Below, one piece after another: positions 1-6,000 of a stretch of DNA of 10,128 nt. How positions within the stretch are numbered: the stretch's first letter is position 1; every line of letters begins with the position of its first letter. A program made the position numbers. This stretch comes from a virus (lineage: Duplodnaviria > Heunggongvirae > Uroviricota > Caudoviricetes). The stretch lies in IMG/VR virus record IMGVR_UViG_2690316175_000004; one strand, written 5' to 3'.

Positions 1-3000
1 GCCGAAGTCACCGCAGACAGCGGGGAATATCAGGTGCTGGCGCGATGGGACACGCCGAAGGTGGTGAAGGGTGTGAGCTTCCTGCTTCGCCTGACCGTGG
101 CAGCGGACGACGGCAGTGAGCGGCTGGTCAGCACAGCCAGGACGACGGAAACCACATACCGCTTCAGGCAGCTGGCGCTGGGGAATTACAGTCTGACAGT
201 CCGGGCGGTAAATGCCCGGGGGCAGCAGGGCGATCCGGCGTCGGTATCGTTCCGGATTGCCGCACCGGCAGCGCTGTCGCGGATTGAGCTGACGCCGGGC
301 TATTTTCAGATAACCGCCACGCCGCATCTNNNNNNNNNNNNNNNNNNNNNNNNNNNNNNNNNGGGGAACTACAGGCTGACAGTCCGGGCAGTAAATGCGT
401 GGGGGCAGCAGGGCGATCCGGCGTCGGTATCGTTCCGGATTGCGGCACCGGCAGCGCCTGTCACTATTGAACTGATACCGGGGTATTTTCAGATAACGGC
501 GGTCCCGAAACTGGCTGTATATGACCCGACGGTGCAGTTTGAGTTCTGGTTTTCGGAAAAGCGGATTGCGGATATCAGGCAGGTTGAAACCACAGCACGC
601 TATCTTGGCACGGCGCTGTACTGGATAGCCGCCAGTATCAATATCAGGCCGGGCCATGATTATTATTTTTACGTTCGCAGTGTGAACACCGTTGGCAAAT
701 CGGCATTTGTGGAGGCCATCGGTCGGGCGAGCGATGATGCAGAAGGTTATCTGAATTTTTATAAAGGGTTGATCAATAAAACGCATCTCGGCAAGGAGTT
801 GTGGACGCAGATTGATAACGGTCAGCTTGCGCCGGACCTGACTGAAATCAGGACGTCCATTACGAATGTCAGCAATGAAATCACGCAAACCGTCAATAAA
901 AAACTGGAAAATCAGAGTGCTGCAATCCAGCAGATACAGAAAGTTCAGGTTGATACAAATAATAACCTGAACAGCATGTGGGCTGTGAAGCTGCAACAGA
1001 TGAAGGACGGACGCCTTTATATTGCGGGTATCGGTGCCGGTATTGAGAATACGCCAGCAGGAATGCAGAGTCAGGTGCTGCTGGCGGCAGACAGGATTGC
1101 GATGATTAATCCTGCGAATGGCAACACAAAGCCGATGTTTGTTGGTCAGGGCGATCAGATATTCATGAACGACGTGTTCCTGAAATGCCTGACGGCTCCG
1201 ACCATTACCAGCGGCGGTAATCCTCCGGCATTTTCCCTGACACCTGGCGGACGGCTGACGGCGAAAAATGCCGATATCAGCGGTAACGTGAACGCGAACT
1301 CCGGGACGCTCAACAACGTCACGATTAATAAGAACTGTCGGGTTCTGGGAAAATTGTCCGCGAACCAGATTGAAGGCGATCTCGTTAAAACAGTGGGCAA
1401 ACCTTTCCCACGGGACTCCCGGGCACCGGAGAGGTGGCCATCAGGGACCATTACCGTCAGGGTTTATGACGATCAGCCGTTTGATCGGCAAATTGTTATT
1501 CCCGCGGTGGCGTTTCGCGGTGCTAAACATGAGCGGAAGAATAACAATATTTATTCGTCATGCCGCCTGATAGTGAAGAAAAACGGTGCTGAAATTTATA
1601 ACCGAACGACCCTGGATAATACGCTGATATATACGGGTGTTATTGATATGCCTGCCGGTCACGGTCACATGACGCTGGAGTTTTCTGTATCGGCATGGCT
1701 GGTAAATGGCTGGTATCCCACAGCAAGTATCAGCGATTTGCTGGTTGTGGTGATGAAGAAAGCCACTGCAGGCATCACGATTAGCTGAATTTTATAACCC
1801 AGATACGGGCACCAGAAATGGTGCCTTTTTTATTGCAGAAAAGCGAGAGGTAATTATGCGTAAAGTTTGTGCAGCCATTTTGTCCGCAGCCATCTGTCTG
1901 GCCGTATCCGGTGCGCCTGCATGGGCGTCTGAACATCAGTCCACGCTGAGCGCCGGGTATCTTCAGACCCATACTGATATGCCAGGCAGCGATGACCTGA
2001 AGGGCATTAACGTGAAATACCGTTATGAGTTTACGGACACGCTGGGGCTGATTACGTCATTCAGTTATGCCAACGCTGAAGATGAGCAAAAAACGCATTA
2101 CAGCGATACCCGCTGGCATGAGGATTCCGTGCGTAACCGCTGGTTCAGCGTGATGGCGGGGCCGTCTGTGCGCGTGAATGAATGGTTCAGCGCGTATGCG
2201 ATGGCGGGCGTGGCTTACAGCCGTGTGTCGACCTTCTCCGGGGATTATCTCCGCGTAACTGACAACAAGGGGAAAACGCACGATGTGCTGACCGGAAGTG
2301 ATGGCGGTCGCCACAGCAACACGTCTCTGGCGTGGGGGGCTGGCGTGCAGTTTAACCCGACCGAATCCGTGGCCATTGACCTTGCTTATGAAGGTTCCGG
2401 CAGTGGTGACTGGCGCACTGACGGTTTCATCGTGGGTGTCGGTTATAAGTTCTGATTAGCCAGGTAACACAGTGTTATGACTGCCCGCTGGTTCAGGCGG
2501 GCTTTTTGTGGGGTGAATATGGCAGTAAAGATTTCAGGTGTACTGAAAGATGGGGCGGGTAAACCTGTCGTAAATTGTGCGATTGAACTGCGGGCCAGAA
2601 GAACCAGTCCGACCGTTGTGGCACACGTTGTTGCCACTTGCGTGACGGACAATAACGGTGCTTATGTGATTGAGGCTGAGCCGGGGTATTACGAGGTTGC
2701 GCTTCACTGTAACGGCTGGCAGCCAACCCGTGTCGGGGATATTGATGTGGCACCGACTGATGCACCGGGGACACTGAACGCGTTTCTGAATGCACCAAAG
2801 GATGGTGATTTACGTCCGGAGGTGATGAAGTGTCAGCGCCAGTGATATAAGACGGTAATTCGCCATTTGGATTGTCCGCTCCACCCAACATGTTGTTTCC
2901 TTAAGGTTCTCACACCAGAAAGGACATCAACATGCTGAGCAGAGAGGACTTTTACATGATAAAGCAAATGCGCCAGCAGGGCGCGTACATCGTCGATATT

Positions 3001-6000
3001 GCGACTCAGATTGGTTGCTCTGAACGGACGGTCAGACGCTACCTCAAATACCCTGAACCGCCAGCCAGAAAGACNAATCCGGTCAGCGTGGAGGTCCAGT
3101 CCGTCACCGACGGCGTGAAGGTAAAAGTGAGCCGTGTTCCTGACGGTGTTGCTGAATACAGCGTGTGGGGGCTGAAGCTGCCGACGCTGCACCAGCGATT
3201 GTTCCGCTGCGTGAGTATCCGTGAGAACGACGACGGCACGTATGCCATCACCGCCGTGCAGCATGTGCCGGAAAAAGAAGCCATCGTGGATAACGGGGCG
3301 CACTTTGACGGCGACCAGAGCGGCACGGTGAATGGTGTCACGCCGCCAGCGGTGCAGCACCTGACTGCCGAAGTCACCGCAGACAGCGGGGAATATCAGG
3401 TGCTGGCGCGCTGGGACACGCCGAAGGTGGTGAAGGGCGTGAGCTTCCTGCTCCGTCTGACCGTAACAGCGGATGACGGCAGTGAGCGGCTGGTCAGCAC
3501 GGCCCGGACGACGGAAACCACTTACCGCTTCACACAACTGGCGCTGGGGAACTACAGGCTGACAGTCCGGGCAGTAAATGCGTGGGGGCAGCAGGGCGAT
3601 CCGGCGTCGGTATCGTTCCGGATTGCCGCACCGGCAGCGCTGTCGCGGATTGAGCTGACGCCGGGCTATTTTCAGATAACCGCCACGCCGCATCTTGCGG
3701 TTTATGATCCGACGGTACAGTTTGAGTTCTGGTTCTCGGAAAAGCGGATTGCGGATATCAGGCAGGTTGAAACCACAGCACGCTATCTTGGCACGGCGCT
3801 GTACTGGATAGCCGCCAGTATCAATATCAAACCGGGCCATGATTATTACTTTTATATCCGCAGTGTGAACACCGTTGGCAAATCGGCATTCGTGGAGGCT
3901 GTTGGTCAGCCGAGTGATGATGCATCCGGTTATCTGGATTTTTTCAAAGGCGAGATAGGGAAAACCCATCTGGCTCAGGAGCTGTGGACGCAGATTGATA
4001 ACGGTCAGCTTGCGCCTGACCTGGCTGAAATCAGGACGTCCATTACGGATGTCAGCAATGAAATCACGCAGACCGTCAATAAGAAACTGGAAGACCAGAG
4101 TGCGGCAATTCAGCAGATACAGAAGGTTCAGGTTGATACAAATAATAACCTGAACAGCATGTGGGCTGTGAAGCTGCAGCAGATGCAGGACGGACGCCTT
4201 TATATCGCGGGTATTGGTGCCGGTATTGAGAACACCCCTGACGGCATGCAGAGTCAGGTGCTGCTGGCGGCGGACAGGATTGCGATGGTTAATCCTGCGA
4301 ATGGCAACACAAAACCGATGTTTGTTGGTCAGGGCGATCAGATATTCATGAACGACGTGTTCCTGAAACGCCTGACGGCCCCCACCATTACCAGCGGTGG
4401 AAATCCATCGGCATTTTCCCTGACTCCGGACGGAAAGCTGACCGCTAAAAATGCGGATATCAGTGGCAGTGTGAATGCGAACGCCGGGACGCTCAACAAT
4501 GTCACGGTAAATGAAAACTGTACGATTAAGGGCATGCTGGAGGCGACTCAGGTCAGAGGTGACTTCGTTAAAGCTGTATCCAAATCATTTCCGAAACAGG
4601 CTGGTACGTGGGGTAACACGGAAACACCAAACGGGACGGTTACAGTCACCATAAGCGATGATCATAACTTTGACCGCCAGATTATTATTCCGCCCATTAT
4701 TTTTAACGGTATAGCGTATGACGATCCGGGGAGCGGAAATAACCCAGGAGGCACGCGATACACGGGTTATGGTTTTGAAGTTCGCAAAAACGGCGTATTA
4801 ATCGCATCCAGAGAAACTAAAGGTGCCATTCCCGGTAGTTACAGTGCAGTTATTGATATGCCTAGTGGTGGTGGTAGCGTCACTCTGGAGTTTAAGATTT
4901 TCCAGAAAGGCAATCAGGGGGCAGGCAATATCACCGACTGTACGGTGATTGTGACCAAAAAAGCGGCTTCCGGCATCAGTATTCGTTGAAATATTTATAA
5001 CCCCAATAAATGGCGTCAGGAATGACGCCTTTTTTATTGCAGAAAAGCGAGAGGTAATTATGCGTAAAGTTTGTGCAGCCATTTTGTCCGCAGCCATCTG
5101 TCTGGCCGTATCCGGTGCGCCTGCATGGGCGTCTGAACATCAGTCCACGCTGAGCGCGGGGTATCTTCATGCCCGGACCAACGTTCCCGGCAGTGATGAT
5201 CTGAACGGGATTAACGTGAAATACCGTTATGAGTTTACGGATACGCTGGGGCTGGTGACGTCATTCAGCTATGCAGGAGACAAGAATCGCCAGCTGACCC
5301 GTTACAGCGATACCCGCTGGCATGAAGATTCCGTGCGTAACCGCTGGTTCAGCGTGATGGCGGGGCCGTCTGTGCGCGTGAATGAATGGTTCAGCGCGTA
5401 TGCGATGGCGGGTGTGGCTTACAGCCGTGTGTCGACTTTTTCCGGGGATTATATCCGCGTAACTGACAATAAGGGGAAAACGCACGATGTGCTGACCGGA
5501 AGTGATGACGGTCGCCACAGCAACACGTCTCTGGCGCACTGACGGTTTCATCGTGGGTGTCGGTTATAAATTCTGATTAGCCAGGTAACACAGTGTTATG
5601 ACAGCCCGCCGGTTCAGGCGGGCTTTTTTGTGGGGTGAATATGGCAGTAAAGATTTCAGGTGTACTGAAAGACGGCACAGGAAAACCGGTACAGAACTGC
5701 ACAATCCAGCTGAAAGCAAAACGTAACAGCACCACGGTGGTGGTGAACACGCTGGCCTCAGAAAATCCGGATGAAGCCGGGCGTTACAGCATGGACGTTG
5801 AGTACGGTCAGTACAGCGTTATTCTGTTGGTGGAAGGATTCCCGCCGTCACATGCCGGGACCATCACCGTGTATGAAGATTCCCGACCCGGTACGCTGAA
5901 TGATTTTCTCGGTGCCATGACGGAGGATGATGCCCGTCCGGAGGCACTGCGCCGTTTTGAGCTGATGGTGGAAGAGGTGGCGCGTAACGCGTCCGCGGTG

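Follow-up and report, generated by a model that had tools for sequence, protein, structure and literature searches.

A single-base scaffold gap between two Shigella sonnei prophage modules and the probable artefact of an istA-J reading frame across it

GapFiller extends both edges of a gap base by base according to a majority vote and closes the gap only if the two extensions overlap (PMC3446322). The authors of a pipeline that combines SSPACE with GapFiller state that such greedy tools may produce false joins, and Shigella sonnei was the most fragmented species in their study, with a mean of 405 contigs (PMC5320598). Here we analysed a stretch of 10,128 nucleotides of Caudoviricetes DNA (IMG/VR record IMGVR_UViG_2690316175_000004, hereafter the window), in which the start of an IS21-family istA gene is joined in frame to a gene for tip attachment protein J across one ambiguous base at position 3075. 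We give a probability of about 0.9 to the reading that this N is a scaffold-gap placeholder between two unrelated contigs, and that the fusion is an assembly artefact.

The ambiguous bases of the window fall into three N runs only, of 33, 1 and 304 N (Table 1). The runs of 33 and 304 N act like scaffold gaps, with the right adjacency at the 304-N run and probably also at the 33-N run. The real sequence in place of the 304 Ns has the same length in all five finished relatives compared, so the Ns are size estimates. Masking as the origin of the N runs was rejected on the basis of this difference in length and of the 33-N flanks, which overlap in J coordinates. The lambda order J, lom, stf, (tfa) is kept in both halves of the window with matching Pfam domains, and Ig_J, Ig_J_second, Phage_Tail_Tip and Ig_GpJ_C all score above the Pfam cut-offs in both J copies. 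The N-terminal J domains FNIII-A_GpJ and Phage-tail_3 are missing from the window because the contigs begin mid-gene; both are present in the finished genomes. In the reading preferred here, the window stems from a draft assembly that was scaffolded from short reads, and its organism is Shigella sonnei or a very close relative.

Table 1 Features of the window, with the evidence for each where given. A and B denote the two prophage modules, X and Y the contigs that meet at position 3075.
Coordinates	Strand	Feature	Evidence
1-329	+	J_A contig end, from J_A codon 626	Site-by-site allele comparison
330-362	.	33-N scaffold gap	
363-1788	+	J_A 3' part	Pfam J domains, L006 alignment
1856-2455	+	lom_A, Ail/Lom outer-membrane protein, 199 aa	PF06316, 428.6 bits
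2477-2830	+	stf_A codons 1-118, encoding the N-terminal domain of the side tail fibre; IS-truncated	PF08400 (phage_tail_N)
2831-3074	+	IS21-family left end: IRL 2831-2841, istA ATG 2932, codons 1-47 and two bases of codon 48	
3075-3075	.	Lone N; very probably a false scaffold join of contig X, from prophage A, to contig Y, from prophage B	
3076-4989	+	J_B codons 529-1165, tip attachment protein J; start of contig Y	Ss046 L016 alignment
5060-5542	+	lom_B, truncated Lom, 160 aa	Exact protein in 1212 blocks of the collection
5635-8724	+	stf_B, side tail fibre, 1029 aa	
8724-9305	+	tfa_B, tail fibre assembly protein, 193 aa	
9527-9830	.	304-N scaffold gap; adjacency correct; real sequence 261 bp in finished relatives	

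The left flank matches a decayed lambdoid prophage remnant that adjoins sitABCD in Shigella sonnei. Positions 363-3074 of the window correspond to positions 7887-10598 of place L006 with 99.7% identity, and the matching contigs are gap-free and 0.32-4.8 Mb long. Within this remnant, the side tail fibre gene stf_A is identical to intact stf genes (100%) up to position 2830. The first-pass annotation had stf copy A cut by an IS21-type left end at about 2823-2831; this is borne out, with the boundary at 2830|2831. The resulting stf_A reading frame (2477-2845) contains 118 stf codons and four IS-encoded codons, and its stop codon (2843-2845) lies inside the IS. The 122-residue product specific to this stf'::IS junction has exact copies in 543 blocks of the collection, 13 of which have contigs longer than 1 Mb, and the junction occurs in no complete Escherichia coli genome of the collection. 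The stf'::IS junction is a marker of the Shigella sonnei lineage, and the real feature at this locus is an old, lineage-wide and decayed IS21-family insertion after stf_A codon 118.

The identity of the element and its left boundary, both proposed from the sequence alone, are confirmed by comparison with an intact copy of 2130 bp on a plasmid of E. coli FDAARGOS_943 (L003), labelled in RefSeq as 'IS21-like element IS21 family'. Window positions 2831-3074 are base for base the first 244 nt of this copy, consisting of the left inverted repeat, a 101-nt leader and IstA residues 1-47. The left inverted repeat (IRL), TGTCAGCGCCA, shows the 5'-TGT start of a 5'-TGT ... ACA-3' terminal pair, of which the window holds only the IRL; in the intact copy, the reverse complement of the right repeat (IRR) is TGTCAACGCCA, identical to the IRL at 10 of 11 positions. 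The IstA fragment of the window scores 23.5 bits against NF033546 (cut-off 160), being too short alone at 47 residues, and it belongs to the family through its 47/47 identity to the intact L003 IstA, which scores 284.3 bits. The IstA continuation in finished S. sonnei genomes, in two pieces of 109 and 238 residues, also matches NF033546. The istB gene, for the AAA+ helper ATPase of the family, is found in the L003 copy (NF038214, 301.9 bits; cut-off 200) and is absent from the window.

In the finished relatives, the element reads on past the breakpoint as C-CGCCACAAAATGG..., so the description of an istA frame of only 47 codons is true of the window and does not reflect a real truncation, as the finished genomes run to codon ~109. 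There the order is istA to ~109 residues, an IS3-family element, the rest of istA and a second IS3-family element; downstream lie the 3' remainder of stf, a DUF4376 gene and sitABCD, and there is no J. Homology to the IS stops at the equivalent of L003 position 4604, before istB at 4780. The chromosomal copy therefore has no right ~1 kb (istB and IRR), and the right end is deleted in all finished relatives. Lacking istB, this copy belongs to the family only as a truncated, non-functional remnant. The IS21-family copy in the finished genomes is thus interrupted and truncated by IS3-family elements. Copies of the left 428 nt of the IS with 100% identity are also carried by pINV plasmids of S. 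sonnei, in up to five places per plasmid.

The right flank belongs to a second prophage. The whole right part, positions 3076-9526, matches another prophage of S. sonnei Ss046 at ~99.96%, and positions 3076-8847 correspond to L016 positions 7442-13213 (CP000038.1) at 99.965%. As the J coding sequence starts at L016 position 5858, the window enters 1584 nt into the gene, and codon 529 of J_B begins at position 3076; J in the finished genomes is complete, with 1165 residues. The start of contig Y is J_B sequence throughout, free of IS-end bases. A long identical stretch of J_A and J_B was considered as the cause of the contig Y start at J_B nt 1585 and was rejected: their longest common run measures 86 nt, and no common run has its end at this position. 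In four chromosome-scale assemblies, locus B lies upstream of locus A on the same strand, at a distance of 682,322-686,454 bp. The two J-lom-stf modules are therefore separate prophages ~685 kb apart and not a tandem tail-module duplication.

At the junction itself, every sequence-level claim made in advance holds: 47 istA codons, an N at 3075, J in the same frame, and an open reading frame of 685 codons. This frame (2932-4989, plus strand) starts with ATG and is open throughout. Its first 47 residues are identical to the N-terminus of intact IS21-family IstA, codon 48 is ACN and encodes threonine whichever base N is, and the J part contains the Ig_J, Ig_J_second, Phage_Tail_Tip and Ig_GpJ_C domains. 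The frame match across the N is real, with a chance expectation of one in three. Base calls do not run uninterrupted across the breakpoint, where the base is N. The break lies 244 nt within the IS, inside istA and away from any IS terminus, and there is no microhomology, as the true next base in finished relatives is C on the IS side and G on the J side. When relatives are aligned to the window, each flank continues differently beyond 3075. None of the features of a known mechanism (an IS terminus, homology or microhomology, a plausible topology) is found at this position. The junction string, with any base at N, has no match in 185,579 species-representative genomes, a search of low power with one genome per species. 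The chimeric frame is also absent from the gene-position index, a weak negative given that the query carried X at codon 48. In the called gene layouts, the A/B join occurs in none of the stf'::IS places (L006-L015) or module B places (L016, L018-L027). We conclude that the istA-J fusion gene very likely does not exist in the organism, the 685-codon frame being a by-product of a false join.

The first-pass annotation left the choice between an IS-mediated deletion or rearrangement and an artefact, and favoured the latter. Its preference is strongly supported, and three observations contradict the IS-mediated event. The break falls within istA; B lies upstream of A in the same orientation, so that an A-to-B join cannot be a deletion and corresponds topologically to the joint of a circle or of a tandem duplication; and the IS and J both continue normally in finished relatives.

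The false join may have formed as follows. Contig X (363-3074), with the J_A 3' part, lom_A, the truncated stf_A and the first 244 nt of the IS21-family element, ends inside a multi-copy IS, and contig Y (3076-9526), with J_B from codon 529, lom_B, stf_B and tfa, comes from the other lambdoid prophage ~685 kb away. Both contig ends thus lie in repeats, IS copies on one side and paralogous J genes on the other. A greedy paired-read scaffolder, the kind of software being our inference as well, may have linked X and Y through ambiguously placed reads, and filling from the edges or a negative gap estimate may have reduced the gap to one N. For a non-positive gap, a scaffolder would enter a single N; a literature search for such a rule of SSPACE or GapFiller found none spelled out. 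The 244 nt of repeat at the end of contig X exceed what a de Bruijn contig normally covers, and an extension of its edge would have to be assumed in addition. If the join is false, the left flank would read on over the breakpoint as ...AGAAAGAC-CCGCCACAAAATGG, and the true junction of the right flank would read ...GACGGGCAGGGG-AATCCGGTC. A comparable single-N join is found within tail-fibre genes of another draft scaffold (L017, CXFU01000079.1).

Independent support for the artefact comes from the same scaffold, which mixes paralogous sequences of J_A and J_B; a J paralogue is present inside the window itself. The J_A allele occupies bases 1 to ~217 and the J_B allele 261-329, with ~218-260 common to both genes. 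The discriminating sites in 1-329 are 18/18 of J_A type followed by 20/20 of J_B type, and none is unique to the window. We therefore rejected the idea that 1-329 is a third J allele misjoined at the 33-N gap, as the pattern is a pure switch from J_A to J_B with no unique bases. At the right edge of this gap, the first 41 nt (363-403) carry the J_B allele. In J coordinates, the two flanks of the gap have about 150 bp in common, which makes the true gap negative, and the adjacency of the J_A 5' and 3' parts is probably correct. There is also a three-base J_B-type patch at 593-597 within J_A, and lom_A-type bases are found at 5098 and 5101 within lom_B. All residual mismatches to the finished references (10/10) carry the base of the other module.

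These switches and patches (1-329, 363-403, 593-597 and 5098/5101) could be read as real gene conversion between the tail modules instead of assembly cross-talk. Mosaicism is common among lambdoid tail genes, and conversion would also give the paralogue's base at each deviant site. We consider this reading improbable, because two reciprocal switches sit exactly at the edges of an N gap whose flanks overlap, unlike a single conversion tract, and because the finished relatives compared carry the reference alleles at those sites. The pattern is the one expected from extending both gap edges through a common run into the majority allele (PMC3446322). If conversion were nevertheless real, the paralogues would recombine in this strain, and a real A/B recombinant would be more thinkable, though not at 3075.

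Less probable still is that the adjacency is real and the gap is not, in other words that the 3' part of J_B came to lie after the stf_A'::IS21/IS3 cluster through a rearrangement mediated by an IS in this strain, with the N standing for an IS-filled gap; this too would leave no fusion gene. S. sonnei is very IS-rich, the nested IS3-family elements at the locus are possible recombination substrates, the A-B distance varies slightly among finished assemblies (682 against 686 kb), and scaffolders do at times link contigs that really are adjacent despite the repeats between them, the gaps of 33 and 304 N in the window being examples. Such a rearrangement would, however, need an extra IS insertion at J_B nt 1585, where contig Y opens without IS-end bases. 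With direct IS copies in the order B...A, recombination would not leave this junction in a deletion product; it would arise only if a circle were excised or ~685 kb were duplicated in tandem. The arrangement is also found in no chromosome-scale assembly that was read, nor in any other listed place.

A contiguous real junction, made by illegitimate recombination between istA nt 143 and J_B nt 1585 with the N as one low-quality call in an in-frame IstA(HTH)-J(C-terminal) gene, would fit the agreeing frames, the 685 open codons, the single ambiguous base and the indifference of ACN to it, yet it is hardly credible, because the flanks share no microhomology and have C and G as their true neighbours, the tail-to-head topology requires a ~685-kb duplication or a circular molecule, transposase chemistry cannot explain a break away from the IS end, every other record examined lacks the junction, the same scaffold mixes paralogues, and the frame match is a one-in-three coincidence. 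It would accordingly be most surprising if the junction existed physically in the sequenced culture, as a new joint formed by the tandem duplication of ~685 kb or by the excision of a circle, and encoded the IstA helix-turn-helix fused to the receptor-binding C-terminal 637 residues of J.

With the false join as the preferred reading, the value of the junction is in quality control only. The 685-codon istA-J frame should not be annotated or counted as a tail-protein variant, it is no evidence of IS-driven shuffling of prophage tail modules, and the apparent tandem J-lom-stf pair should not be taken as a duplicated tail locus. In draft Shigella and E. coli scaffolds, a lone N between two repeats, flanks whose counterparts in finished relatives read on differently, and contig edges with the bases of a paralogue are signs of such joins. 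The real biology is the inactivation of stf in a decaying S. sonnei prophage by an IS21-family insertion, which is lineage-wide and was later riddled by IS3-family elements. This is genome decay of the kind typical of Shigella, already present in hundreds of public assemblies, and the window junction adds nothing biologically new.

Compared with known systems, the window resembles the false joins of greedy scaffolding and gap filling of the SSPACE and GapFiller type in IS-rich, multi-prophage Shigella and E. coli drafts, with N placeholders between repeat-ended contigs. Like GapFiller-type artefacts, it shows edges extended into the wrong paralogue and a gap left open since the extensions fail to overlap; its 244-nt contig end in a repeat and its one-N gap are explained by inference only. 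Relative to the intact IS21-family copy, the window has only the left 244 nt, and the finished S. sonnei copy is nested with IS3-family elements and dead. Relative to lambda J-lom-stf-tfa, stf is disrupted by the IS in module A, and lom is truncated to 160 residues in module B. An IS21-family element, ISEc62, also adjoins J in the finished genome of E. coli VTB97379v (L001). We rejected this match (H11) as a collinear IS21-J precedent, because its order is opposite (J-5', complete ISEc62, J-3') and it is an ordinary insertion. Unlike the fragment in the window, ISEc62 is a complete IS with istA and istB inside J, flanked by a 4-bp target duplication (ACGC), within the 4-8 bp of IS21-family insertions, and the 5' part of J abuts its left terminus.

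The single N at 3075 is a false scaffold join of two loci, a reading to which we give a probability of about 0.9. The window carries two successive lambda-type tail modules (A on the left of this N, B on the right), with the gene layout taken from an ORF listing and Pfam scans. The first-pass annotation was right in every detail of its description, namely a cut stf in module A, an istA frame of 47 codons, an N at 3075 and a 685-codon ORF at 2932-4989. Its preferred interpretation, that two prophage contigs had been joined artefactually, is supported, as the flanks correspond to loci ~685 kb apart.

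Features of the window and of L006, a finished Shigella sonnei-type contig
Sequence	Feature	Coordinates	Detail
Window	N run	330-362	33 N
Window	N run	3075	1 N
Window	N run	9527-9830	304 N
Window	Module A, J 3′ part	to 1788	
Window	Module A, lom	1856-2455	
Window	Module A, stf N-terminal fragment	2477-2845	ORF
Window	IS21-family left end	2831-3074	between modules A and B
Window	Module B, J 3′ part	3076-4989	
Window	Module B, lom	5060-5542	160 aa
Window	Module B, stf	5635-8724	
Window	Module B, tfa	8724-9305	
Window	Five mismatches	363-403	edge
Window	Three mismatches	593-597	J_B type within J_A; Ser to Thr (TSAR to TTAR)
Window	Two mismatches	5098/5101	lom_A type within lom_B; synonymous
L006	IS3-family element inside IS21-like element	10783-12044	
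L006	IS21-like sequence resumes	12045-12719	then cut by second IS3-family element
L006	stf 3′ remainder, then DUF4376 gene, sitABCD	from 13897	

The IS segment matches IS21-family left ends in 2,415 of 5,426 complete E. coli genomes. Up to 2830 the stf gene of module A (stf_A) shares 100% identity with intact stf genes, and the first base of the IS is 2831, where it begins TGTCAGCGCCA; stf_A is therefore interrupted behind codon 118, with four IS-encoded codons before its ORF stops. The istA gene starts at 2932, and all of its complete codons agree with an intact IstA (47/47); codon 48 is ACN, from which the frame runs on into J and makes up the 685-aa ORF. The best-matching intact copy, on a plasmid of E. 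coli FDAARGOS_943, is 2130 bp long, with IRL TGTCAGCGCCA and IRR (reverse complement) TGTCAACGCCA, and its IstA (284 bits) and IstB (302 bits) both exceed the NCBIfam cut-offs. Judged by IstA identity and inverted repeats, the window's IS is a bona fide IS21-family element, and the left end proposed at about 2823-2831 is borne out. S. sonnei virulence plasmids have copies that are 100% identical to the first 428 nt of the IS, in up to five places per plasmid, and the chromosomal copy of this lineage is a dead remnant lacking istB and the right end. The insertion in stf is real; public assemblies already contain it by the hundred, and for Shigella it is nothing unusual.

Since the 122-aa product of the truncated stf_A ends inside the IS, it serves as a tag for this one insertion. 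The exact protein occurs in 543 blocks of a public gene-position collection, and 13 of these blocks have contigs longer than 1 Mb. Window positions 363-3074 are 99.7% identical to N-free contigs (L006 7887-10598). In L006 the IS runs past the window's breakpoint (C-CGCCACAAAATGG...) with an istA of 109 aa, and in none of the ten tag-bearing places shown is the IS followed by a J gene. The nested IS21-like element in L006 occupies 10355-13896 (window 2831 onwards); the first IS3-family element (100-aa and 272-aa ORFs) sits at IS nt ~430, and the second copy stands in place of the right ~1 kb of IS21, including istB, and 433 bp of stf. This is textbook stepwise IS-driven prophage decay. An uninterrupted module A, 98.8% identical, is found in the ipaH-carrying E. 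coli FDAARGOS_943 (NZ_CP065615.1, L005 3660-11681) in the order J, lom, 470-aa stf, DUF4376, ipaHe, and shows the state of the locus before the insertion.

On the other side of the N, positions 3076-8847 are 99.965% identical to CP000038.1 (L016 7442-13213), the genome of Shigella sonnei Ss046 (PMC5447701). In this genome and nine other places, S. sonnei 53G and 75/02 among them, a J gene is called upstream of the module B lom (lom_B); it is complete at 1165 aa in eight of the ten, 1151 aa in L019 and split into three ORFs in L027. The window enters this J (J_B) at the first base of codon 529, and a J paralogue ~90% identical is present within the window itself. The lom_B gene encodes a truncated Lom covering profile positions 1-159 of 199, and its exact protein occurs in 1212 blocks of the gene-position index, so that it looks like a fixed, pseudogene-like truncation within the S. 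sonnei lineage. In tfa_B, ~63-64 bp at 8848-8910 are found in the window, L018, L022 and L025 and are missing in Ss046 and 53G, where tfa is uncalled or shortened to 150 aa; this segment is an indel of the tail fibre assembly gene that varies between strains.

Both tags occur together in four chromosome-scale assemblies, and the distance from the truncated stf_A start to the lom_B start is 682,322, 686,454, 686,451 and 685,713 bp. In all four, the modules lie on the same strand with B upstream of A. A deletion would join the upstream side of B to the downstream side of A, whereas the window has the end of A joined to the middle of B, a junction that belongs to an excised circle or to a tandem duplication of ~685 kb. 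The breakpoint is 244 nt within the IS and not at a terminus, so transposition chemistry could not make the join, and no microhomology is found at the break (IS side ...AGAAAGAC/C, J side G/AATCCGG). Topology, IS-internal break and absent microhomology together exclude the IS-mediated deletion that the first-pass annotation had offered as an alternative. Sequence comparison places the two flanks in different loci, each with another continuation in finished genomes and both ending in repeats.

The scaffold contains further paralogue mix-ups. The left flank of the 33-N gap (1-329) carries the J_A base at 18/18 discriminating sites and then the J_B base at 20/20, switching across a ~43-nt run common to both genes (~218-260). 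The right flank (363 onwards) shows the reciprocal switch, and no sites unique to the window occur at these flanks, which overlap by ~150 bp in J coordinates. Wrong-paralogue sequence takes up ~110 nt at the left edge and 41 nt at the right one, and the adjacency of J_A 5′ to J_A 3′ is probably right. Such switches, with extensions that fail to merge, would be expected if both edges were extended base by base through the shared run following the majority paralogue; base-by-base extension is GapFiller's published procedure (PMC3446322). Ten other positions differ from the finished references, and all ten carry the other module's base. The two internal patches may stem from mis-mapped reads that contaminated the consensus, or they may be short tracts of gene conversion. 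Real gene conversion is possible for small patches but unlikely as the explanation of the allele patches, as the reciprocal switches at both edges of the N gap indicate assembly. Five finished S. sonnei relatives have just 261 bp where the window has the 304-N run, so the Ns estimate the size of a gap and do not mask sequence; on either side the window is collinear with these relatives and matches four of them at 100% (53G at 99.3% on the right), and the adjacency is correct, with the gap size over-estimated.

For the false join at 3075, a greedy paired-read scaffolder may have linked the contig ending in the IS to the contig starting in J_B through ambiguously placed read pairs, and the gap could have been cut to one N by a non-positive gap estimate or by edge extension from both sides. 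SSPACE and GapFiller "can lead to false joins", as stated by those who built a widely used bacterial pipeline on them; S. sonnei was their most fragmented species (mean 405 contigs) (PMC5320598). True adjacency of A and B across an unsequenced, IS-filled gap is improbable, as it would call for another IS at J_B nt 1585 without any trace of it at the start of the right-hand contig, and its topology is just as awkward. An IstA-J fusion encoded by a contiguous illegitimate recombinant is hardly credible, given the lack of microhomology, the adverse topology and the absence of the junction from all other records examined. A look-up of the chimeric protein, queried with X at codon 48, gave no match. 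The frame stays open across the join by coincidence, with a chance of 1 in 3, and the chimeric istA-J ORF is an artefact.

The J, lom, stf and tfa genes of the window are ordinary lambda-type tail genes by Pfam. A similar draft scaffold, CXFU01000079.1 (L017), has N runs of 20, 11 and 1, and its tail-fibre sequence changes abruptly at the single N; its accession prefix belongs to the same series as cited S. sonnei drafts. Within its positions 1-8119 the 5′ kilobase of stf_B occurs three times (100%, 93.8% and 100%), and at position 5435, the single N, stf_B gives way to a different fibre gene of 715 aa, behind which lie tfa and sitABCD (97.9% to S. sonnei). This scaffold, too, is probably a chimera of tail-fibre paralogues. 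In E. coli VTB97379v (NZ_CP178682.1, L001 6613-8738) a J gene does carry a real IS21-family insertion, an independent, complete ISEc62 ~89% identical to the window's IS, at a site equivalent to window ~3688. It is flanked by a 4-bp target duplication (ACGC), and the window junction differs from it.
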